A model generated the notes under the pieces. That model was not told where the DNA came from, searched no databases, and saw only the letters and a program-made list of their open reading frames with translations. Made by a program: the position numbers and the translations under genes. This document shows positions 5,135 to 49,745 of a DNA stretch of 64,000 bases, one piece after another (position 1 is the stretch's first letter; every line of letters starts with the position of its first letter). Where the stretch lies: positions 1-64,000 of IMG/VR virus record IMGVR_UViG_3300045988_116039. One strand, given 5' to 3'. Origin of the DNA: a virus.

Positions 5135-5491
5135 TTATATTACTCCTTCCAAATTTACTTTAATAGAACCATTTATGGTTTTAATGCTCCCATCTATGGT
5201 TGAAATCACATCATCTATATCATTTATAATACTTTCCATGTCATCAACCACCTCCTCCATATCAGTTACAGCCTGATCTGATTCCCAATATCTTTCTGAG
5301 TCTTGTAACGATTCCGGTATATTATCTCTCGCCTCAGTCTCTTCGTCTAAAATCATATCAACATCATCTTTGGCTGAATTTATGTTGCACTTCAACTCCG
5401 ATAACTTTGATTTGATGTATTCAAAATCTGTTTTATACTTATTTACGTTGTTAATAACATCCGATATTTTTTTTCTTCTCTTGTTGTTCAT
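5135..5491 (-). CDS. Hypothetical acidic protein
   Basis: ORF of 118 aa. Confidence 0.5.
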   Translation of the reverse strand: MNNKRRKKISDVINNVNKYKTDFEYIKSKLSELKCNINSAKDDVDMILDEETEARDNIPESLQDSERYWESDQAVTDMEEVVDDMESIINDIDDVISTIDGSIKTINGSIKVNLEGVI

Positions 5492-6909
5492 GCTTTTATC
5501 CTATTATAATATTCTATAACCTTTTCTTTTCTATCTCCTGGTTTTACTGCCATATTCTCAGCCAAGAACCTAAAATACGACACCGGTATGTCCTTGAATC
5601 TAATTCCTTCATATTTTCCAAACCACATTATTATACTATCAAGATCGTCTTCTCTCCTACCATCTCCATTCACAGATTTAAGCGAGGCTGCCCGACGAAG
5701 GATCTCGTCTTTGGTAATAATATCACCCATCCTTATATTAGACAGAAGTTGATCGCCAGCAAACATACACCAGCCCTTAGAAGGGAATTGCTCGATTGTC
5801 AGGTCTTCTATCCGACCAAAGCGTCTCATGTTGTCGCAGCAATCAACTATCAGCGCCTCTTTCTTGTCAGGATGGATGCGGACGGCGCGGCCTAATATTT
5901 GGTAATAAGTTGAATATGAGAAAGTTGGTCGACCAAACATCACACAATCAAGTTCAGGAAAATCAAATCCGGTAGCAAGCGTTGAATAATTAAAAACCAC
6001 CTTCAACTTACCTTCTTTGAAATCGGATATGATTTGCTCTCTTTTCTTTTTGGTTGTTAGCGATGTTACGACACCGGTTATGGCTCCCATCCTGGCATTC
6101 ATGAACTCTGATATTCTATTACATGATTCGATAGAATCCATGCAAACCAAAATGGCTTTACGCTCGTTCATAAGTTGAAGAAGGCGCTTGTAGATAGAGT
6201 TGTTTAAGCCGTTTCGTACAATACTTTCTTTAATAGATTCGTTGGTGTATTCGGCTCCGGTACTGTTTAACATCAGAGCCGATTCATCAAACGACCATCG
6301 TTCGTACTTAAGTGGACACCAAAACCCTTGAGAAGTTAGTTCTTGTATTTGAGTCACATGAACTATTTTCTTGAAGAAGTTATGCTCGTCTTTCGTCAGC
6401 ATATTGAGCTTGCTATAGTTCCCTTCCAGCATGGAACTGTAGGTTCGGAGGCGGCAGGGAGTGGCGGTGAAGCCCAGTACCTTCGCCTCTGGGAACCTGT
6501 TCATAAACTCCATAAATTCAGAACCTTCTTCAGGAGAATATCCTGAATGACATTCGTCTATCAATAAGGTATCTATCCCTATATCCTTCAACCTCGCTAC
6601 ATCTTTCTTTATGCTCTTTAATGTTGCATAAGTCATAGCCGACAGCTCCTTTATACCACATGAAGCAGAATATATAGTAGGTTTAGAACCGAATGATACG
6701 GCCTTTGCATAATTCTGCTCCAGAATCTCTTTTGAGGGCTGTAATACTAATGTCGGTCTATTTATTTCATGTGCTATCTTGGATATCAGAAGGCTCTTTC
6801 CACATCCGCATGGGGCTACGATTATGCCAGGCTTCTTAGATCTTCCTGTAAGAAACTTAAGCCCGGCATCTACTGCTTCTTTTTGGTAAGGTCTAAGTTC
6901 AAAGCCCAT
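5488..6909 (-). CDS. Superfamily-2 DNA/RNA helicase (DEAD/DEAH-like)
   Basis: Walker A APCGCGKS, Walker B LLIDECH, motif III GFTATP, motif VI QILGRAVR. Confidence 0.8.
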   Translation of the reverse strand: MGFELRPYQKEAVDAGLKFLTGRSKKPGIIVAPCGCGKSLLISKIAHEINRPTLVLQPSKEILEQNYAKAVSFGSKPTIYSASCGIKELSAMTYATLKSIKKDVARLKDIGIDTLLIDECHSGYSPEEGSEFMEFMNRFPEAKVLGFTATPCRLRTYSSMLEGNYSKLNMLTKDEHNFFKKIVHVTQIQELTSQGFWCPLKYERWSFDESALMLNSTGAEYTNESIKESIVRNGLNNSIYKRLLQLMNERKAILVCMDSIESCNRISEFMNARMGAITGVVTSLTTKKKREQIISDFKEGKLKVVFNYSTLATGFDFPELDCVMFGRPTFSYSTYYQILGRAVRIHPDKKEALIVDCCDNMRRFGRIEDLTIEQFPSKGWCMFAGDQLLSNIRMGDIITKDEILRRAASLKSVNGDGRREDDLDSIIMWFGKYEGIRFKDIPVSYFRFLAENMAVKPGDRKEKVIEYYNRIKA

Positions 6910-7285
6910 CGCAATCTATTATATTATTTTTTGAAAGTTCTATTATCGCCTCTTTCAACATCTCCCTTGCTTTATTCTCATTATCTTCAAACAGGCATAC
7001 ACTGCATGTAGCACCTTTGGAGGGGTAGTCTCTGTAGGCTTCTGCTCTTTCTACAACGTACTCACAACAATAGTCGTGACTCATGTCTTTTGCTATACTT
7101 ATAAAATGATCTTCTCCATCCATCAACACGCAATATTCAGCATCGTTTTCGCATGCAATAACACCTTTGTTTTTTAAAATGGATAGCACTTTATTTCCAA
7201 AAAGTCCAATATAGACCCATATATCTTTCCCTGCATTTTTGTAAAAAATATCCATTCCTTCTTTGATTGTGACTTTCTTTTCCAT
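6899..7285 (-). CDS. Hypothetical protein
   Basis: ORF of 128 aa. Confidence 0.5.
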   Translation of the reverse strand: MEKKVTIKEGMDIFYKNAGKDIWVYIGLFGNKVLSILKNKGVIACENDAEYCVLMDGEDHFISIAKDMSHDYCCEYVVERAEAYRDYPSKGATCSVCLFEDNENKAREMLKEAIIELSKNNIIDCDGL

Positions 7286-7291
7286 AATCCC

Positions 7292-7642
7292 TTATTTTAT
7301 ATCAGTAATTAAAACATATATTTTAGCAATATCTTCAAGACTCACAGAAGAACGTATATATAGTTTTTCTTCGTACTCATATAGAGCGTACCCTTCTTTT
7401 ATGTCTAATATCTTAATCACATGCTTGCCTCTTTCAAATGGATCCTCAAAGTAGCTCTTATGTTCGTATCTTTGACCTACTTTGATTTTGTCAGTTTTCT
7501 TCTTCATCTTATAACGCTCTACTGCTCTACCTGTTTTTATGAAAGCTGTCGTGAGTAAGTATAATAAAACTAAATACAAAAGGATCGCTACTCCACATAT
7601 TAGATCTTCTTTCATTACACTCCTTTTAAATAGTTGAACCAT
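7292..7642 (-). CDS. Hypothetical membrane protein
   Basis: ORF of 116 aa with an N-terminal hydrophobic helix (ICGVAILLYLVLLYLL). Confidence 0.5.
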   Translation of the reverse strand: MVQLFKRSVMKEDLICGVAILLYLVLLYLLTTAFIKTGRAVERYKMKKKTDKIKVGQRYEHKSYFEDPFERGKHVIKILDIKEGYALYEYEEKLYIRSSVSLEDIAKIYVLITDIK

Positions 7643-7785
7643 ATATCCTCCAGCTTCTCCTGAAGCTCAAACGCTTTCTTGAAATTCCCGCATCTTACAG
7701 CAACGTCTCTCATGTATTCTACGTTTATAACTTCCGGATCTTGCCGGTATTTCGTTCTTAACTTTTGAACATCCTCGTATTTCAT
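7615..7785 (-). CDS. Small hypothetical protein (56 aa), not in the ORF track
   Basis: ATG at 7785 overlaps the TGA stop of gene 7782-8801 as ATGA. It encodes MKYEDVQKLRTKYRQDPEVINVEYMRDV... Confidence 0.3.
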   Translation of the reverse strand: MKYEDVQKLRTKYRQDPEVINVEYMRDVAVRCGNFKKAFELQEKLEDIWFNYLKGV

Positions 7786-8801
7786 CGTTTTATCTTTTTA
7801 GACGGATCCCAATCTGAAGAGAAAGGGCATTCGTTTTTGTTATGTAATCCAAAGTCACAATAATAACACAGTGCTGACGGGCAGGGTAGCTTGTTTTGCG
7901 AAACAGGCTGGCTTAGGGTGGCACGCCGCTTGCTATATCTGGCTCCTTCTGCTCCCTGGATGTACGCTTGAAATGATTTTACACTATTATCTTCAAAATC
8001 ATACATTTTAGATAAAGTGTCATTTAGCATTTCTATAGATTTTGTTTTACGCTCTTCATCCACCTTAACCTTTTGGTACTGTCTGGTCCTGGTAAAGAAA
8101 TAGATGTTCATATCTGGCAGAACTCCACCATATTTTCTATAGATGTAAAACGAATATATAGGATGCTGTAAATTCGTTTCCAACTTCTTAGAATCAAAAA
8201 CCTTATTCCCTGATTTCCAATCTATGACATAATGGTGAATTACGTTCTTGCTCTTTATAGCCAGATGAAGGTCTACTGATCCTACTATGTACACATGGGT
8301 ATGAATTACCCCATTTATGTCAACTGGCTTAGGAAGGCGGTACGGCAGCACAAAATCTTCTTCGACTCCAACTATAGCGCCGTGTCTGATAAGTTTCTCA
8401 CAAGGATTAAGATCACTATCAGCTATCATAAACCTATTGCCGTCTTTTTTAAACAGATCCACAATCCAAGCAAGAAGTTCCCCAGATTGTTTCATGGCTA
8501 TCATCATATTTTCCGGTGATTGCCAAGGTATGTCTTCTTGGTAAGCATAGTAACTTATTGCTTCTCCAAGGTCTTTGCCAGAAGGCTGCCTTCCGTTCTT
8601 GAAGAAGTATTCCAGTGTCTTATGAATAACCGTACCATAAGACGTAGCTTCTTGTTTTTCTGTAGACCTTTTGCCCTCTACGTAAGTCTTATACCATTTC
8701 ATTGGACAAGTAAGAAACGTATCTATCTGGGAATAAGAAATGGCAAGACGTTTCACACCATTAAACTCCTTATATAGCAAATGCGTTTCTGGGACCATCA
8801 T
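7782..8801 (-). CDS. Cas4/RecB-family PD-(D/E)xK exonuclease with a C-terminal Cys cluster
   Basis: N-terminal SYSQIDTFLTCPMKWY, a VIDWKSG (DYKTG-like) motif, and C-terminal CPSALCYYCDF...NECPF giving a 4-Cys Fe-S-like arrangement. Confidence 0.7.
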   Translation of the reverse strand: MMVPETHLLYKEFNGVKRLAISYSQIDTFLTCPMKWYKTYVEGKRSTEKQEATSYGTVIHKTLEYFFKNGRQPSGKDLGEAISYYAYQEDIPWQSPENMMIAMKQSGELLAWIVDLFKKDGNRFMIADSDLNPCEKLIRHGAIVGVEEDFVLPYRLPKPVDINGVIHTHVYIVGSVDLHLAIKSKNVIHHYVIDWKSGNKVFDSKKLETNLQHPIYSFYIYRKYGGVLPDMNIYFFTRTRQYQKVKVDEERKTKSIEMLNDTLSKMYDFEDNSVKSFQAYIQGAEGARYSKRRATLSQPVSQNKLPCPSALCYYCDFGLHNKNECPFSSDWDPSKKIKR

Positions 8802-9157: not shown

Positions 9158-9320
9158 AATGCTTGGTCAGTTCTTCTGGTTCTAAATCTTGTCCAAAATC
9201 CATGTTAAAAATATCGTAATTAGTAAAGCACTTAAAATCACTGTTCCCGCAGGCAGGAAATCTATGAATGCTGCTTTTATTTCTTCAATTAGGCCCAAGT
9301 GTAACCTTGGGCCATTGTAT

Positions 9321-11021
9321 TTATTTTTTGTCATCTCCTTTTAATTTCTTTAAAGTATCTGCAATCGGAAGCTGATCAATGACTCCCAATGCCGGAGCGA
9401 CGGTCTTGACAACATTGTTAAGGAAATTACCGGTGCTGTTTTGACCACCGTCAAATACCGTGATATTTCCGAGATTGATGTGCTCGAACGCCTTAACCTG
9501 TTCTCCAGCAATTTCTTTCCACTGATTAACCATCTTGTACTGAATGGCGATCTGAGGATTGGATTCTGCTGCTTCCACCATAGCCTTAAATCCGTCGGCT
9601 TCTGCCATTAACGACTTTTTCTTACCTTCGGCTTCTGCCTCCAGCTTCATCTGAATAGCCTTTGCCTCTGCCTCAGCTTTTGCCAAATGTGCTGCTGCCT
9701 CAGCCTCAGCCCGGCGTTTGATCTTCTCGGCCTCAGCATCAGCTTGTAATATAGCCTCTTCCTTCTGGGTTTCAGCCGGCACAATCTTTTCAGCCTTAAG
9801 CGCAGCCTGAACTTTCTTAGCCTTAGCTTCTTCCACTTCTTTATCAGCAAGCTCTTTTGCCGTTTTTACAGCCGCTTCCGATTTAACTTTTTCTTCTCCG
9901 GCCTTCTTTTCTGATTGAGCTTTGATAATCTGTAGTTCTGATACTGACACAGCAACCTCCTTCTGGGCATTGTTGTATCCTATAGACGCATTTTTCTCAG
10001 CCTCAGCCTTCTTAATCTGAGCTTCAGAGTCTTGTATTGCTATAGCTGCTTCCTTGTCAGCTTCAGCCTTATTCTTTCCGACTTCTTCCATCCTTTCAGC
10101 CTCGGCTTTATTTACTTCAAGTTCTGCCTTAGATCTTACGATCGCCGATTCCTTGTCGGTTAAAGTTTTTGCGATAACCGCAGCCCTGTCTCTATCTGCT
10201 TGAGCTACACCGATCTGTTTCTCCTTATCGGTTAAAGCTAAAGCTATTTCTTTTTCTTTCTTCGTTTCAGCTACTATCGTTTCCTTTTCTTTTTCAGTAC
10301 AAGCAATTTGAATCTCTTGTTCTTTTTTGGTATTAGCCACAGCCGTTTCTTTCTCCTTCTGCTGTACAGCAATCTTAATAGCACCCAGCTTCTCCTGTTC
10401 TTCGATATTAGCCTGTGCCTCGTTCAGAGCCCTACTTTCAGCTTCCTTACCAAGGTTCATAATATAACCGGCTTCGTCTCTGATGTCACTGATGTTGATG
10501 TTCAGGAGGTAAAGACCTAACTTGTTAAGCTCGTTATCAATGTTCTTTCTCGCCTTATCCAAAAACTCATCCCTGTCAGAATTAAGTTTTTCGATCGTCA
10601 TTTCAGCAATAATCAAACGCATCTGACCGTAAACGATGTCCGTAATAAGATTTTCAGTAGATTCGGTATCCATCCCCAAAAGTCTTTCTGCCGCATTTTG
10701 CATGATTTCGGGATTTGTACTGATAGCTACTGTAATGGTCGTAGGTACATCTACTCTAATATTCTGAGATGACAAAGCACCGGTAAGCTTGCAATCTATT
10801 TGCATAGGCTCCATTGACAAAACATCATAGCTTTGAATAATAGGCAAGACAAATGCCGCTCCACCATGATATAATTTCGCCGATTTCTTTTCCCCACCTG
10901 TCTTACCATAAACGACCAAGACCTGATTAGGCTTACATCTACGATACCTTGATAAGACTCCGATGATTGTCAAAATAATCACTACAGCTAAGATAGCTGA
11001 CACGTACATGATTGTTGTCAT
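9321..11021 (-). CDS. Flotillin-like SPFH (band-7) protein, YqiK/FloT-type
   Basis: N-terminal TM helix, an SPFH domain (VVYGKTGG...VDVPTTITVAIS...), a long E/A/K-rich coiled coil (flotillin repeats) and a conserved C-terminus. Size and architecture match YqiK/FloT. Confidence 0.8.
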   Translation of the reverse strand: MTTIMYVSAILAVVIILTIIGVLSRYRRCKPNQVLVVYGKTGGEKKSAKLYHGGAAFVLPIIQSYDVLSMEPMQIDCKLTGALSSQNIRVDVPTTITVAISTNPEIMQNAAERLLGMDTESTENLITDIVYGQMRLIIAEMTIEKLNSDRDEFLDKARKNIDNELNKLGLYLLNINISDIRDEAGYIMNLGKEAESRALNEAQANIEEQEKLGAIKIAVQQKEKETAVANTKKEQEIQIACTEKEKETIVAETKKEKEIALALTDKEKQIGVAQADRDRAAVIAKTLTDKESAIVRSKAELEVNKAEAERMEEVGKNKAEADKEAAIAIQDSEAQIKKAEAEKNASIGYNNAQKEVAVSVSELQIIKAQSEKKAGEEKVKSEAAVKTAKELADKEVEEAKAKKVQAALKAEKIVPAETQKEEAILQADAEAEKIKRRAEAEAAAHLAKAEAEAKAIQMKLEAEAEGKKKSLMAEADGFKAMVEAAESNPQIAIQYKMVNQWKEIAGEQVKAFEHINLGNITVFDGGQNSTGNFLNNVVKTVAPALGVIDQLPIADTLKKLKGDDKK

Positions 11022-11052
11022 AACTTTTAAAATTTAATTGTTGATAAAAAAA

Positions 11053-11547
11053 TTAGATACTTAATTCTCCTTCTTCATATTTTATATTCGCCTTGTCGCC
11101 GTTTTTGTAGGTTTTTCCAGACAAGCATTTTACTCTCATTTGCTCTTGTCTTCCATTTTTCGAAATATTTACCATATAATGATTCTTCCCTGATCTAAAT
11201 ACTATCTCCACTTCTCTTCCGTTTAAATCTTCCGGACATTCGTACACCATTTCTTGCTTTAACTTAAGAAGTAACTTATATACGTAAAACAAAACGATAA
11301 AGAAAAACGACCCTATCACAACCCCTACTAAATGGGAACCCGAAAAGTAGGTAGTCCAGCTATATCCAAGAATAAAATGTGTTATGCCCTTGAATGATAT
11401 AATGTCCGACAAAGACATACTTAAATCAGAAGCACTGTCAATGTCAATATCCGTATCCAGATCAGATCCTAATATCGATAACAAAAACTGTATAACAAAA
11501 GCAAATGACGCTATTAAAGCCATGCATAAAATTATGTCACTTCCCAT
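11053..11547 (-). CDS. NfeD-like membrane protein (YqiJ/YuaF-type partner of SPFH proteins)
   Basis: Several TM helices followed by a C-terminal OB-fold-like beta region (GREVEIVF...VKCLSGKTYKNGDKANIKYEEGEL). It lies directly upstream of the flotillin gene, as in yqiJK and yuaF-floT. Confidence 0.65.
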   Translation of the reverse strand: MGSDIILCMALIASFAFVIQFLLSILGSDLDTDIDIDSASDLSMSLSDIISFKGITHFILGYSWTTYFSGSHLVGVVIGSFFFIVLFYVYKLLLKLKQEMVYECPEDLNGREVEIVFRSGKNHYMVNISKNGRQEQMRVKCLSGKTYKNGDKANIKYEEGELSI

Positions 11548-11788
11548 ACCCTTCTGTTATTATTTTGTAAACAAGATCAGTCATATCTTTGATGGTCTCC
11601 ATATCATAATCAATAATAACAATATTGAATTTTTGTTCCACCATCACATCAAGCTCAATTCGATCAATAGAATCTAATCCAAGTTCTTTAAACGTCACAT
11701 CTTCTTCATGAACTATATCTATTTCCGAATTAAGAAACTGAGTAATAATTATATCCTCTATTATCTTTCTGATTCTTACTTTTTCCAT
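11537..11788 (-). CDS. Acyl carrier protein
   Basis: 83 aa with the ACP signature LGLDSIDRIELDVMVEQKFNI (a phosphopantetheine-attachment Ser in a DSL-like motif). Confidence 0.7.
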   Translation of the reverse strand: MEKVRIRKIIEDIIITQFLNSEIDIVHEEDVTFKELGLDSIDRIELDVMVEQKFNIVIIDYDMETIKDMTDLVYKIITEGYGK

Positions 11789-12489
11789 TGCTTTCTAATT
11801 TTGTTAAATAAATACGTTTTTATGTTTTTCAATCGCTCTTTGTCTGTTTCAGAACTTCCGGTAAACAAATAATCCGGATTGCCTTTAGCCGGCGGCGTAG
11901 GCAATTTAGATACGGCAAACAACCAATCCATTTCCTTATTCTTCTTAGACTCCAAATAAGGCTCGGTAGCGATCTTAAATTTTTCAGCTATTAAGTCAAA
12001 GAGCTTTGAATTTTTAAGGTTCATATGTACTGAAAAAGCCTGAGAAGGTGGTTTCCATATGAAGTTGCATAAGCTCATTGTATAATCTCCTGACTCTGCT
12101 ATATAAGATTCCGTTACCTGAAGTATGACCTCTTTCTTGAATGAGGTGTTACCCATAAACCAACACAATCTGGATTCTGCTTCTTTTCTGCTGACACCTA
12201 TGTCTTTTGAATATGATTCGTACATTCCTATCATAATCTTCAACGTTTCCAGAACCTCGTCTGTCATTTCCGGTGTCTCTATATAATTTACAAAAGACGT
12301 TCCTTTGTTGGTTAATCTCATCACGCCTGATTTTAATTTCTCAACCAGGCCAAGCTCTATATACCTCCCAGCATCTTCTTCCGGCATGGCTTCGATCATA
12401 ACCGAATCCTTCTGTCTTATGGCAAGAAGATTAGCAAGATCATTAGGAGTCATGTCTGATGCTGCAAGTTGTCTGAAATTGATGTACAT
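11776..12489 (-). CDS. Hypothetical protein
   Basis: ORF of 237 aa. Confidence 0.55.
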   Translation of the reverse strand: MYINFRQLAASDMTPNDLANLLAIRQKDSVMIEAMPEEDAGRYIELGLVEKLKSGVMRLTNKGTSFVNYIETPEMTDEVLETLKIMIGMYESYSKDIGVSRKEAESRLCWFMGNTSFKKEVILQVTESYIAESGDYTMSLCNFIWKPPSQAFSVHMNLKNSKLFDLIAEKFKIATEPYLESKKNKEMDWLFAVSKLPTPPAKGNPDYLFTGSSETDKERLKNIKTYLFNKIRKQWKK

Positions 12490-12491
12490 TC

Positions 12492-12689
12492 TTAATCAGC
12501 TTTAATGAAAATAACATTCTTGTTATCTTGTCTATCAACATGTTCACATGGACCAATAATTATGTCTGTACATGAACAATAATTGTAATTTTCGAATATA
12601 CACCTATCGCATGTATCACCTTCCACACATTTTAATCTTACAAGTCCGGCAGTAAACACTTCTCCTACTTTAAATTCCTTCTTTTCCAT
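12492..12689 (-). CDS. Small Cys-rich protein (CDRCIF motif), paralog of 30453-30722
   Basis: 65 aa. The ...CDRCIFENYNYCSC...C motif is shared with ORF 30453-30722. Confidence 0.45.
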   Translation of the reverse strand: MEKKEFKVGEVFTAGLVRLKCVEGDTCDRCIFENYNYCSCTDIIIGPCEHVDRQDNKNVIFIKAD

Positions 12690-38928: not shown

Positions 38929-40140
38929 TTGACATACTCCCATCGCTAAAGCAAATGGGATTCTTGGATACAAACGTATGGAACCCCTGCATTTCTGCAA
39001 CTGGAATTACCCATACTCTCCAATTCGGAAATGCCCTTCCGAAGTATATTACGGGCTGCAAGAACATCACGGTCGTTTACCGCTCCGCACGACGGGCATA
39101 CCCACGTGCGGTCGCGTAACGACAGTCCTTTATTAATGCAGCCACATTCGCAAGTTTTGGAAGAAGGATACCATTTGTCAATCTTGTGTACTATCACTCC
39201 ATACTTTGAAGCAACATACATTAGCTTATCAATAAAAGAAGAATGGCTAAGATCAGAAACCTTCTTTCCCCACAAACGCTTCATTCCTTCAATGTTTAAA
39301 TCTTCAATAAAAATATAATCATATTGTTTGCATAACTGATGAGCTAATTTCCATTGAAAATCTGATCGAAGATCGTTTATTTTACGATACGTTTGTTGTA
39401 GTTCAAACAGCCTCCTTCTTCTATTGTTAGATCCTTTCTTAGCATTAGAAAATTTCTTACTTAGTTTTCTAATCTTGTTTTGATATTGTTTGAAGAATAG
39501 AGGAGAATCGATTTTGCTACCATCGCTTTTAGTTAGATAAGTTTTCAGCCCAAAATCCAATCCTATAGATACACCATCATGTGTCTTTCTATAAGAGTTT
39601 ATAAGATTATGATCTGTAATAATTATCAGACTATATCGATGGCATGTTTCTCTAACTATTCTAATTTGTTTAACATTACCTTCATAAGGTCTACTGTATG
39701 AAAACTTAAAACGTTTCTTTCCTTTGTTAATTGTTAAACAATTACCATTTAGGGTAAACCCTCCTTGTTTAAATACAAAAGAATTGAATTTATCCGGTGA
39801 TTTAAACTTAGGAGGTCGTTTGGCCAATTTCTTGAAGAAACGATTGTATGATGAGTCTAATCTATGAAGGATTTCTTGTACTGTTTGAGAATGAAGTAGA
39901 TTTCTTTTAATCCTTTTGGAAAAATGCTTTTGTATCTTACCAACTGGTATGTATTTCCCAAACAGTCTATAATATCTACGTTGTAGAGCTAAAGCATGAT
40001 TCCATACAAAACAGCATTCGCGAAGCATCTTGTCAAGATACTTCGTTTTCTTTGAATGATAGATGTTGTATTTGTAGGAAATCATTTTTAACCACATTTA
40101 TAATACAAATATAATAATAACTTTTTGGCATATCTCAGAA
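38929..40140 (-). mobile_element. IS200/IS605-family TnpB-only element (copy 2). The right end is at about 38929; the left end is approximate.
   Basis: Homology with copy 1 ends after AGTATGTCAA (complement of 38929-38938). The left-end boundary was not determined. Confidence 0.5.
38946..40097 (-). CDS. tnpB: TnpB (IS200/IS605 OrfB family, RuvC-like RNA-guided nuclease), full length
   Basis: 383 aa. RuvC-I GLDFGLKTY, a CECG...CPSCG zinc finger and RuvC-III DRDVLAARNI. It is a diverged inverted copy of the fragment at 1-201. Confidence 0.85.
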   Translation of the reverse strand: MWLKMISYKYNIYHSKKTKYLDKMLRECCFVWNHALALQRRYYRLFGKYIPVGKIQKHFSKRIKRNLLHSQTVQEILHRLDSSYNRFFKKLAKRPPKFKSPDKFNSFVFKQGGFTLNGNCLTINKGKKRFKFSYSRPYEGNVKQIRIVRETCHRYSLIIITDHNLINSYRKTHDGVSIGLDFGLKTYLTKSDGSKIDSPLFFKQYQNKIRKLSKKFSNAKKGSNNRRRRLFELQQTYRKINDLRSDFQWKLAHQLCKQYDYIFIEDLNIEGMKRLWGKKVSDLSHSSFIDKLMYVASKYGVIVHKIDKWYPSSKTCECGCINKGLSLRDRTWVCPSCGAVNDRDVLAARNILRKGISELESMGNSSCRNAGVPYVCIQESHLL

Positions 40141-40208: not shown

Positions 40209-40649
40209 TTAAAGATAGTAAAACTTATCCACCAGTTTCCTACCCACTACATCAAACTTCTGTCTATGAATTAAAGGTGCGACCTTAACGACGTTCTTCC
40301 TATTTTTACTAACATCGACATAAATCAGCCCGGCATAAGACGGAACTTCATTTACGTCAATCATATTAGGCGGACAGGCGTAGTAGAAATAGTTTGGAGG
40401 ATAGCTTATGACACCACCTACCTTAATAATGCCGTCTTTAAGAACCTTATGTTTTTTATCCTTTTTGAAGTCGTTAAAGAAATCTTGTTTAGACATCTTG
40501 ACCTCTACTTCATAAGCGTACAATGATCTTGTTATGGCCAGGAAGTCAGATTCCCAATCATATATATGGAGATTGTTAATAACATACATCGGATTACTTA
40601 ACAGATCCCTATTAAGGATCTTAAGCATTTGTTGCTCTGGGTAGTTCAT
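40209..40649 (-). CDS. MmcB-like PD-(D/E)xK-fold protein (putative nuclease)
   Basis: YAYEVEVKMSKQDFFNDFKKDKKHK resembles the MmcB-like motif aiEvKvS..Dl..D.K. Confidence 0.4.
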   Translation of the reverse strand: MNYPEQQMLKILNRDLLSNPMYVINNLHIYDWESDFLAITRSLYAYEVEVKMSKQDFFNDFKKDKKHKVLKDGIIKVGGVISYPPNYFYYACPPNMIDVNEVPSYAGLIYVDVSKNRKNVVKVAPLIHRQKFDVVGRKLVDKFYYL

Positions 40650-41095
40650 TTTTTATTTTTATAATTTAATGTTTGAGAATGACAATTAGGGCATAATATT
40701 TGCAAATTTTCTATCCTGTTGTCACTTTTTATACCATTTATATGGTGAAGCTGTAATGATATATCCTTTTCCATCCATTTTGAAATACCACATATGTCAC
40801 ATTTTCGCTCCTTTAATCCCTCTTTTATTAATCTTCTTCTAAGACAATCAGTATTTAAATAATTTGAATTTTCAACAAGTATCTCATTAAGCGGTCTATT
40901 TATCCTAAATATTGACAATTCTTTAGATTTATAAAAATGAGAGGTATCTATTTTAAAAATAATAAATTTATGATGTAACGTTTTTATATTTCCAGAATTA
41001 GGATACAATCCAAGAGCTCTACATACATCTGAATATGTATGAACATTCCTTACTATACCTTCAAGCAATTCTTTTGTATATAAAATTCTTCTCAT
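40646..41095 (-). CDS. HNH endonuclease with an N-terminal HTH-like region
   Basis: HHINGIKSDNRIENLQILCPNCH (HNH motif). Confidence 0.7.
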   Translation of the reverse strand: MRRILYTKELLEGIVRNVHTYSDVCRALGLYPNSGNIKTLHHKFIIFKIDTSHFYKSKELSIFRINRPLNEILVENSNYLNTDCLRRRLIKEGLKERKCDICGISKWMEKDISLQLHHINGIKSDNRIENLQILCPNCHSQTLNYKNKK

Positions 41096-41100
41096 GTTAT

Positions 41101-41172
41101 ATTAATTTAGAGGCCGATGGCGGGATCGAACCGCCATAAAAGGTTTTGCGGACCTCCGGCTAAACCATTCAC
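41101..41172 (-). tRNA. tRNA, anticodon probably GCA (Cys); C at position 33
   Basis: The reverse complement folds as acceptor GGCCGAT/ATCGGCC, T-arm GGCGG-TTCGATC-CCGCC and anticodon stem GAGGT/ACCTT with loop CCGCAAA. Confidence 0.65.
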
Positions 41173-41178
41173 CCAATC

Positions 41179-41250
41179 GGCCATATTGTAGCCCAACCGG
41201 GAGTCGAACCCGGAACTAAAGTTTAGGAAACTTTTGTTATATCCGTTTAA
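41179..41250 (-). tRNA. tRNA-Arg (anticodon CCT)
   Basis: The reverse complement gives D-stem GTTA/TAAC, anticodon stem AAAGT/ACTTT with loop TTCCTAA, T-arm CCGGG-TTCGACT-CCCGG and acceptor AGCCTGG/TTGGGCT (with G-U pairs). Confidence 0.65.
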
Positions 41251-41328
41251 CTACCAGGCTATTTAATGTTTGCTATGTTCACACACCGCAAACACTGAGA
41301 TAATTAACATTTCCACAAAAACTTATCG

Positions 41329-41399
41329 TTATCCAAGGAGGATTCGAACCTCCGCTAACAGAACCAAAATCTGTTGTGCTACCACTACACCATTGGACA
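41329..41399 (-). tRNA. tRNA-Gln (anticodon TTG)
   Basis: Acceptor TGTCCAA/TTGGATA (U1-A72), D-arm GTGT-AGTGGTA-GCAC, anticodon stem ACAGA/TCTGT with loop TTTTGGT, T-arm GGAGG-TTCGAAT-CCTCC. Confidence 0.7.
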
Positions 41400-48512: not shown

Positions 48513-49745
48513 TTAGCAAAATACATTCGTAATCCTTACCGGGTTAAACAATAACCCTCTATCGATTATCCTACGAATTGATTCACAGGAATCACCGACT
48601 ACTTTTCTCATAATGTTTAATGCTCCATTTACGTCTGCATTTATGAGTTTTCCTACCGAGGATTGAAACAATCCTCGGTTCTTCCTCTTTCCTAAATAGC
48701 TATCATGTTTTTCTATCTTCTCAAATGCCAATGAATCACATTTTGAAGTATATGATTCTTCATGAATAACTATTTCAATACCAGCTAATTCGCATTTGTA
48801 TTCTAAGTAACTCACCAATCTCGCAAAAGGGATTTGTGTGAATTTCTGGTTATTCCTTTTTCCCATATTCACATTCTGTTTCCATCCCTTGTTATAGCCT
48901 ACAACTAATTTTGTTATCTTGGAATCGATAAGCAAATCAACTATCTTTCTACTGATTTTATGAAAGACATCTTCTATGTACTGTTCTCTATCATAATATA
49001 ATTTCTTTATTCGTTTTGTTGTTCCTTTTATCTTTTGTAAATCTTTGATACTATTTAATTTAGCAAGTGTTTTATTAAATAATTGATTGTATGATTTAAC
49101 AAATTTACCACTAAACAAAACAGCAAAATCCTCACTTATCAATGTTGCAAGATTGTCAATCCCTAAATCAATCGAAGCGACTTTCTCTTCCTTACCTTTA
49201 GATACTCCAGTATCTTTTACCTCATAAATGATTTCTATTTTATATCCACATGATAATGGTTTTATTCTAATCTGTTTGAAATCTTTTATCAAATCAGAAT
49301 ACTTCTCATATTGAGGAATGCTTATTGAAAGATCTTTTGATAGGATTATTTTTCCATCTTTTATTTTACAACTCTGATTCGGATAATACAAATTAAATTC
49401 AGAACCTCTCTTTTTATAATTTGGAAGACCTGGTTTTTCTTTGTATTTGTTGGGATTTTTCTTGTAATCTTGGACCGATTTGTAGTAACCTTTAATGTTT
49501 TTATCAAGAATACGAAGAATTTGTTGTGAACATTGCGCCTTTAATAATTTGTAATTAATATCTCCATCCAAATTCTGGTTATTTTTCATGATAGCATCAA
49601 GTTCAAAATAGGACAACCACTTATCTTCTTTAGAAAGTGTTTCTCTGAAAATATACAATGCCTGATTGTACAAGTTGTTGCTAATCTTGCACAAAAATGA
49701 TATATTTTCATTTTCCCCTATGTTGAACTTATATACTAATATCAT
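48513..49745 (-). CDS. TnpB-like RuvC nuclease (IS605 OrfB-like) with a degenerate zinc finger
   Basis: RuvC-I ASIDLGIDNLAT, E in IEIVIHEESYTS, RuvC-III INADVNGALNIM. Only one Cys lies between the motifs (no CxxC...CxxC). Confidence 0.7.
   Translation of the reverse strand: MILVYKFNIGENENISFLCKISNNLYNQALYIFRETLSKEDKWLSYFELDAIMKNNQNLDGDINYKLLKAQCSQQILRILDKNIKGYYKSVQDYKKNPNKYKEKPGLPNYKKRGSEFNLYYPNQSCKIKDGKIILSKDLSISIPQYEKYSDLIKDFKQIRIKPLSCGYKIEIIYEVKDTGVSKGKEEKVASIDLGIDNLATLISEDFAVLFSGKFVKSYNQLFNKTLAKLNSIKDLQKIKGTTKRIKKLYYDREQYIEDVFHKISRKIVDLLIDSKITKLVVGYNKGWKQNVNMGKRNNQKFTQIPFARLVSYLEYKCELAGIEIVIHEESYTSKCDSLAFEKIEKHDSYLGKRKNRGLFQSSVGKLINADVNGALNIMRKVVGDSCESIRRIIDRGLLFNPVRITNVFC

Follow-up and report, generated by a model that had tools for sequence, protein, structure and literature searches.

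The stretch analysed here, referred to as the window, consists of 64,000 nt of the IMG/VR virus record IMGVR_UViG_3300045988_116039, and all coordinates given below refer to it. Its replication region contains three consecutive minus-strand open reading frames (ORFs), which encode a flotillin (9321..11021, 566 aa), a membrane protein that is probably a divergent NfeD (11053..11547, 164 aa), and an acyl carrier protein (ACP; 11537..11788, 83 aa). The ACP and 164-aa ORFs share 11 nt, and the block lies between genes for a DnaB-like helicase and a PD-(D/E)XK exonuclease. The gene positions, the overlap, and the replication-region setting thus agree with an original prediction made from the sequence alone, which presented the three genes as a single, coupled system of a lytic phage.

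The region is 97.6% identical to GenBank OR575929, the genome of phage crAssE-Sib (deposited as ‘csAssE-Sib’), a 151-kb human-gut phage. The virus of the window is an epsilon crAss-like phage. In OR575929, the three genes are labelled ‘flotillin family protein’, ‘transmembrane protein’, and ‘acyl carrier protein’. The published description of the epsilon crAss-like phage reports a repressor and two anti-repressors, discusses a temperate or pseudolysogenic lifestyle, and makes no mention of flotillin, ACP, or membranes (PMC11054128). Given these regulators and this discussion of lifestyle, the term ‘lytic’, used in the original prediction, is unproven.

The flotillin displays the complete architecture expected for its family, and all its features are encoded on the minus strand. 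As read from the translation, an N-terminal hydrophobic membrane anchor, IMYVSAILAVVIILTIIGVLS (residues 4–24, 10950..11012), is followed by the basic stretch RYRRCK, and the anchor region holds invariant residues common to the phage and cellular homologues. The SPFH (Band_7) domain covers residues 30–211 (10389..10934) and matches Pfam PF01145 with 91.7 bits (cut-off 23.6, E 7.6e-26). It is followed by a Glu/Ala/Lys-rich segment, assigned to a coiled coil from its composition (residues ~212–449, 9675..10388; these three amino acids make up 57% of residues 200–480), and by a C-terminal Flot domain (residues 450–559, 9345..9674; PF15975, 38 bits for a cut-off of 27, E 2.1e-09). Escherichia coli YqiK aligns with it collinearly over the full length (24% identity, E 1e-20), and phmmer matches it to the solved human flotillin-2 and flotillin-1 (E 6.8e-23 and 4.9e-19, respectively). 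The score against NCBIfam NF058507, the equivalog model of Bacillus subtilis FloT, stays far below its threshold (144.5 bits, for a cut-off of 700). Judged from these comparisons, the phage protein is a member of the flotillin family, not a FloT orthologue, and its earlier description as a 566-aa flotillin of the YqiK/FloT type stands.

Flotillin length varies between 410 and 566 aa among close phage variants. The shortened forms (410–533 aa) result from in-frame deletions of 33–156 residues, all of which fall within residues 306–461 and leave the SPFH and Flot domains intact. No tandem DNA repeats explaining these coiled-coil length changes were found. If the flotillin forms a cage, such changes could alter its height.

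The 164-aa partner, also on the minus strand, combines a membrane part with a C-terminal beta domain. In the AlphaFold2 model (m80d067977a68), the membrane part consists of three predicted helices (residues 2–25, 52–69, and 72–101; 11245..11544), with an acidic, low-confidence loop, DLDTDIDIDSASD (residues 28–49), and it carries a conserved SFKG..HF motif. The C-terminal domain (residues 105–164, 11056..11235) is modelled with confidence (predicted local distance difference test, pLDDT, 82–88) as an OB-type beta-barrel resembling the solved soluble domains of NfeD proteins, so that the C-terminal OB fold put forward in the original prediction is borne out. This arrangement, with a multi-pass membrane region ahead of the OB domain, is kept in 80 family members, and the gene is adjacent to, and co-oriented with, the SPFH gene in 81/82 cellular loci and in all phage loci.

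Assignment to the NfeD group relies on profiles, in addition to fold and synteny. An exhaustive profile search places the protein in a family of 410 cluster representatives, mostly 160–180 aa long. When an 80-member profile is compared with the whole PDB, the best non-transmembrane match is the YuaF entry, aligned in register; its E value is 0.34 over 177,635 sequences, equivalent to ~2e-6 per comparison. The family profile aligns with E. coli YbbJ in hhalign (E 0.0012 over 107 columns), and a viral homologue in BFVD/UniProt, 34% identical, is named ‘NfeD-like C-terminal domain-containing protein’. Pfam NfeD (PF01957) is reached by two of 80 family members, with a best E value of 6e-5; a Pfam search restricted to the ten most YbbJ-like members missed both of them. 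The same model readily recognises E. coli YbbJ, used as a positive control (3.5e-12). A profile built from six close homologues retrieved nothing from the PDB. Taken together, fold, family profile, and synteny make a divergent YuaF-type NfeD of the short form the probable identity of the protein.

Several results weigh against this assignment, and with it against the reading of the locus developed below. The 164-aa protein itself has no NfeD or YqiJ match, Pfam, PHROG, and NCBIfam searches remaining empty even at E values up to 10. Foldseek retrieves only generic OB folds from the PDB (E ≥0.03), and no NfeD domain is found among its top 50 matches. With HMMER, the comparison of the family with YbbJ is marginal (third in rank among 1000 shuffled sequences), and YqiJ cannot be separated from the shuffles. 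The earlier ‘NfeD/YqiJ-like’ label is, thus, retained for its NfeD half, on the basis of structure, profile, and genomic context, and dropped for the other: YqiJ (DUF1449) identity was considered and rejected, as neither Pfam YqiJ_N nor YqiJ_OB matches and hhalign against YqiJ gives an E value of 0.045, with a probability of 1%. Among the Pfam families proposed for the locus, Band_7, Flot, and PP-binding are found, and NfeD is not found for the phage protein itself. The partners of Bacteroidales flotillins (family A4, 80 members; e.g., L083:7480-7977 and L084:7349-7846) constitute an annotation gap in the genomes of gut Bacteroidales, the Pfam NfeD/YqiJ models catching two of the 80.

The flotillin and its partner are, as judged from sequence, a chromosomal operon, widespread in gut Bacteroidales, that the phage captured, and not a phage invention. 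Cellular relatives of the flotillin (49–62% identity) sit on contigs rich in housekeeping genes. A 165-aa ORF precedes each of them, and its product is 41–42% identical to the phage 164-aa protein. A wider survey, which used one genome per species and located loci through two peptide patterns, returned 80 loci, all from Bacteroidales (Bacteroides, Parabacteroides, Phocaeicola, Prevotella, Leyella, and Xylanibacter). In 81/82 cellular loci, the partner gene lies directly upstream of the flotillin gene (median gap, 43 nt), the sole exception being cut by a contig end. Flotillin identity amounts to 65–70% between phage and cells vs. 70–100% among cellular copies, and partner identity between phage and cells to 30–44%. 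The lower conservation of the partner does not require separate acquisitions: phage–cell identities are 0.39 for the partner vs. 0.685 for the flotillin, and since equally distant cell–cell pairs give the same partner identity (~0.40), the two genes were transferred together and merely differ in rate. The phage copies form a clade of their own outside all sampled cellular genera, which points to no particular donor genus.

Within phages, the pair is conserved and under strong purifying selection, as estimated from sequence divergence. The block is present in 80/80 IMG/VR loci. The order 237-aa ORF, ACP, NfeD-like gene, flotillin, and ~50-aa ORF is also found in a relative with a shortened flotillin and in a sister lineage, probably a second genus, in which the flotillin is 82%, the partner 63%, and the ACP 38% identical. 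The flotillin and the NfeD-like gene have ratios of nonsynonymous to synonymous substitution rates (dN/dS) of 0.042 and 0.035, respectively, similar to that of DnaB (0.023), and the pair is kept in both genera despite saturated synonymous divergence. No disruption of the NfeD-like gene was seen in the 80 phage loci. Single alleles of these genes are seen on up to 1000 contigs.

The pair is, nevertheless, accessory rather than essential, because natural deletion variants exist. Two independent deletions with different junctions, from window position 11208 to 9581 (1630 bp) and from 11305 to 9558 (1747 bp), each remove the OB domain and ~85% of the flotillin, leaving the ACP and the flanks intact. 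In these variants (L173/L174 and L175), the N-terminal part of the NfeD-like protein is fused in frame to the last ~80 flotillin codons, and the junction of the 1630-bp deletion shows an ATGG microhomology. Seven database ‘homologues’ (P0020, P0027, P0031, P0028, P0033, P0046, and P0047) are such NfeD-like/flotillin fusions.

The third gene encodes an ACP with an isoelectric point of 4.35, containing ELGLDSIDRIEL, as stated in the original prediction. It matches Pfam PF00550 (PP-binding) with 28 bits for a cut-off of 20.8 (32.7 bits for the ACP of the sister genus) and phrog_5934, an ACP family, at 1.4e-8; NCBIfam agrees. A profile of phage ACPs matches 107 solved ACPs, with a best E value of 1.5e-11 and 2.4e-9 for E. 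coli AcpP. Ser40 (codon TCT, 11669..11671, minus strand), within ELGLDSI, aligns with the phosphopantetheine Ser of LGADSLD in solved ACPs and is the predicted 4'-phosphopantetheine attachment site. The AlphaFold2 model, computed from a shallow alignment, has a pLDDT of 45, too low to be of use, and the four-helix fold would be predicted from sequence homology. The reference annotation, read below record position 100 kb and above 107.6 kb, lists no PPTase (phosphopantetheinyl transferase), acyl-ACP synthetase, acyltransferase, or synthase, and no PPTase or acyl-handling enzyme was found among 30 further window ORFs scanned. As no phage PPTase was found, the host AcpS would have to serve this ACP. 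No close homologue of the ACP was found in other deposited phages.

ACP variation is of a different kind from that of the pair. With 38% identity between the two phage genera, it is the fastest-evolving gene of the block. In 7/79 IMG/VR genomes it is disrupted, as a result of no fewer than five independent events: stops at codons 22 (TAA), 43 (TGA), and 52 (TAA), plus two frameshifts. The same comparison revealed no disruption in the 237-aa ORF, the NfeD-like gene, the exonuclease, orf200, or DnaB. Ser40 is kept in 81/81 IMG/VR loci and in the sister genus; in the database set, 16/114 variants have Phe, Pro, or Tyr in its place, on several haplotype backgrounds, some of them seen on 10–20 large contigs. 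Amino-acid polymorphism concentrates on the recognition helix, helix II (codons 40–48); the Fisher p is 1.3e-4 in the database set, where the codon range was chosen post hoc, and 0.03 for IMG/VR haplotypes. This variation looks like an arms-race or counter-selection pattern. Two other sources of variation were considered and rejected. A diversity-generating retroelement does not fit, because the gene shows no similarity to the template repeat of the phage and the Ser40 changes are not adenine-specific. Stop-codon recoding does not account for the interrupted ACP genes either, because the stops are TAA and TGA.

The best explanation of the locus, held with a probability of roughly 0.6, is that it comprises two separate things: a host-derived NfeD–flotillin module and a neighbouring orphan ACP. 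The NfeD-like protein, with three predicted transmembrane helices and a presumably cytoplasmic OB barrel, would form with the flotillin a two-gene membrane-scaffold module. By analogy with solved assemblies, flotillin oligomers would build a ring or cage attached to the host cytoplasmic membrane at its inner face; such a structure is expected because the SPFH domain and proximal coiled coil are homologous to those of the solved assemblies (E 6.8e-23). The NfeD-like partner would dock on it through the OB domain, as proposed by analogy with yuaF-floT and yqiJ-yqiK. Most likely, the phage copy boosts the host scaffold, or co-assembles with and redirects it, which is proposed because the host already has a pair of its own (65–70% identical, the flotillin value). 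The purpose of such a module may be to preserve membrane integrity, or working membrane complexes, during long or persistent infection, which would make it advantageous yet dispensable. The ACP, of type-II-like character, probably acts on or through ACP-binding proteins of the host, as no cognate enzymes were found in the phage and the gene varies in an arms-race-like manner.

Besides the profile results on the partner, four points count against this explanation. The scaffold role in this uncultured phage is drawn from homology. The cellular survey, with its two peptide patterns, leaves donors outside Bacteroidales unsampled. The ACP adjoins the pair in both phage genera, and some functional link between them is possible. 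Finally, TAG replaces CAG (Gln) in the flotillin gene of 3/80 phage genomes (L047, L076, and L077; codons 405 and 490, at window positions ~9809 and ~9554). These codons could be knock-outs or the product of TAG-to-Gln recoding, which occurs in some crAss-like phages.

The alternative to a separation of the ACP from the pair is the proposal, developed from the original prediction, that the ACP, the NfeD-like protein, and the flotillin, perhaps with the 237-aa and 50-aa ORFs, constitute one phage-specific system, in which a flotillin–NfeD platform, provided with acyl or lipid groups by the ACP, would scaffold replication or remodel host lipids. It draws on the order of the five genes, conserved in both epsilon genera, on genes that overlap or are tightly packed, and on the location of the block in the replication region. 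Five lines of evidence leave the ACP unsupported as a third component. No ACP of any kind is found within 5 kb on either side of the 82 cellular NfeD–flotillin operons, with a profile that detects canonical ACPs. The deletion variants lose the pair and keep the ACP. Conversely, all seven genomes with a disrupted ACP (7/79) keep the pair intact, so that the trio, conserved in order across related phages, comes apart through independent losses. The ACP diverges much faster than its neighbours between genera (38% vs. 63% and 82% identity). The 11-nt overlap, real in itself, is not the distinctive coupling it was taken for, since overlaps occur in 25 of the 48 neighbouring gene pairs of the block and reach 11 nt or more in 11 of them. 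The loss of Ser40 in some circulating variants and the lack of a PPTase, acyltransferase, or synthase in the annotation and ORFs scanned also argue against the proposal, which appears distinctly unlikely. A more elaborate version would add the 237-aa protein and regard all four as a single membrane platform evolved by the phage from a repurposed host flotillin cage. Such a cage might, for example, be a compartment attached to the membrane for replication or assembly, or an exclusion device. The ACP would bring an acyl or lipid moiety onto it, or dock enzymes of host lipid synthesis there; the hypervariable ACP helix and the knock-outs would then reflect an arms race with host factors sensing or resisting the takeover. 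This version is considered highly improbable.

Other explanations concern the role of the pair alone. Membrane proteins often mediate superinfection exclusion, and the pair could be a device for exclusion or inter-phage competition, an altered inner membrane blocking DNA injection by competitors or the function of their receptors. Its position among early genes would suit such a role, as would its accessory and dispensable character, expected of competition genes, and the unrelated T5-like Vibrio phage KIT04 also has a flotillin following a small protein with three transmembrane segments. However, PADLOC gives no defence-system match for any of the proteins, and the very strong purifying selection and host-like sequence contrast with the rapid turnover typical of exclusion genes, which makes the idea an unlikely one. 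HflK and HflC, which are SPFH proteins, regulate FtsH, and B. subtilis flotillins have been linked to this protease as well. A pair acting in the manner of HflK/HflC might corral or modulate a membrane protease of the host, such as FtsH, stabilise phage regulators, and sway the decision between lysis and persistence, for which the repressor and two anti-repressors of epsilon crAss-like phages (PMC11054128) would offer candidate targets. This seems quite unlikely, since the protein is of the flotillin type, not of the HflK/C type, its partner is a short NfeD form devoid of a protease domain, and no phage substrate or FtsH link is seen here. The pair might, at the other extreme, be functionless passenger DNA from the host, not yet lost, as the deletion variants and the TAG codons in three of 80 flotillin genes could suggest. 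A dN/dS of ~0.04, like that of replication genes, conservation in both genera despite saturated synonymous divergence, the absence of NfeD-like disruptions (0/80), and the in-frame nature of the coiled-coil indels render this scarcely credible.

Several known systems help to situate the host-derived module. Its nearest counterpart is the uncharacterised Bacteroidales chromosomal operon encoding a 165-aa protein and a flotillin (Bacteroides, Parabacteroides, Phocaeicola, and Prevotella), which is homologous and has the same gene order, spacing, and domain architectures. The phage copies differ from it in that they form a separate clade, sit in a replication block beside an ACP, and have a coiled coil of variable length. 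In B. subtilis yuaF-floT (yuaG), the similarity of the partner is marginal (E 0.34, whole PDB), and the phage locus has no third gene resembling yuaI. In E. coli yqiJ-yqiK, an OB-domain membrane protein is likewise encoded upstream of a 553-aa flotillin collinear with that of the phage, and both YqiJ and the phage partner have acidic loops in the membrane region; however, Pfam YqiJ_N/YqiJ_OB are matched by YqiJ and not by the phage protein. Human flotillin-1/2 and other SPFH cages (PDB 9bq2 and 9l3g; HflK/C) share a homologous SPFH domain and proximal coiled coil, whereas the anchoring of the phage protein is bacterial in type, outside any eukaryotic lipidation context, and its oligomer would be assumed by homology.

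Among phages, the flotillin family protein of Vibrio phage KIT04 (LC487410, L082 4680-6350) is 29% identical to that of the window and matches Band_7, with no match to Flot. It is directly preceded by an 82-aa protein with three transmembrane segments and an acidic loop. This small protein lacks an OB domain and may represent a minimal counterpart of the NfeD-like partner. The SPFH ‘lipoproteins’ of N4-like phages (phrog_200) are stomatin/QmcA-like phage proteins without an assigned role, and SPFH proteins in phages have been noted previously, unexplained (PMC13239085). No NfeD-type family was detectable in PHROGs with E. coli probes. The window ACP matches both the phage ACPs of phrog_5934 and canonical AcpP-type ACPs; it differs from the former in being an orphan for which no partner enzymes were found, in its hypervariable helix II, and in being knocked out repeatedly.

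The individual GenBank annotations, and the existence of phage SPFH proteins, are already known. New are the assignment of the ‘transmembrane protein’ to NfeD, the derivation of the pair from a host operon whose two genes were transferred together, the estimates of selection, and the uncoupling of the ACP from the pair. A literature search returned no description of a phage NfeD–flotillin pair, nor of these genes in crAss-like phages; the pair highlighted by the original prediction as unusual is real, conserved, and undescribed in the literature searched, and an attractive yet unsupported three-part model is corrected. In human guts, epsilon crAss-like phages occur at very high abundance, and a host-derived NfeD–flotillin operon adds membrane-microdomain scaffolds to the host functions borrowed by phages. 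It also constitutes a natural perturbation for the study of bacterial flotillins, whose role remains debated. Two resources result from the analysis: a large branch of short NfeD proteins from Bacteroidales that had not been modelled before (410 cluster representatives, with almost no Pfam coverage), and natural phage variants without the pair or without the ACP, which can be tracked in metagenomes.

Two further minus-strand ORFs adjoin the block. Directly upstream of the ACP, and overlapping it by 13 nt, lies a conserved 237-aa ORF with no assigned function (11776..12489). It has zero matches in Pfam, PHROG, NCBIfam, and PADLOC, is present in all phage loci, and is 76% identical in the sister genus. 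It is absent from the vicinity of the cellular operons (82 loci). On this evidence from gene content, it is treated as context, its membership in the module not being supported here. At the other end, a 50-aa ORF with a C-terminal hydrophobic segment (9182..9334) overlaps the flotillin stop by 14 nt. It shows indels of lengths that are not multiples of three in 30/76 loci and 34% identity in the sister genus; it is doubtful as a gene and may not be stable. A 65-aa ORF at 12492-12689 behaves in the same way (10/56 loci).

Elsewhere in the window, two TnpB/IS605 OrfB-type genes, with a Cas12f1-like TNB domain, lie at 38946-40097 and 48513-49745, and an HNH endonuclease ORF at 40646-41095. Downstream of the block, variant L175 carries (at 6882-8480) a ResIII/Helicase_C helicase gene with a Hom_end_hint (intein/homing endonuclease) domain, which is missing from the 473-aa helicase of the window (5488..6909). 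A tRNA cluster at 41110-41399 comprises Cys-GCA, Arg-CCT, and Gln-TTG, and the cluster of the reference record has a fourth member (Met). Coordinate offsets indicate that the genome of the window is apparently ~6 kb shorter than that of crAssE-Sib somewhere between 12.5 kb and 41 kb. Finally, the GC skew changes sign at ~2 kb and ~54 kb of the window, where the long minus-strand early/replication block and the structural genes on the plus strand meet.

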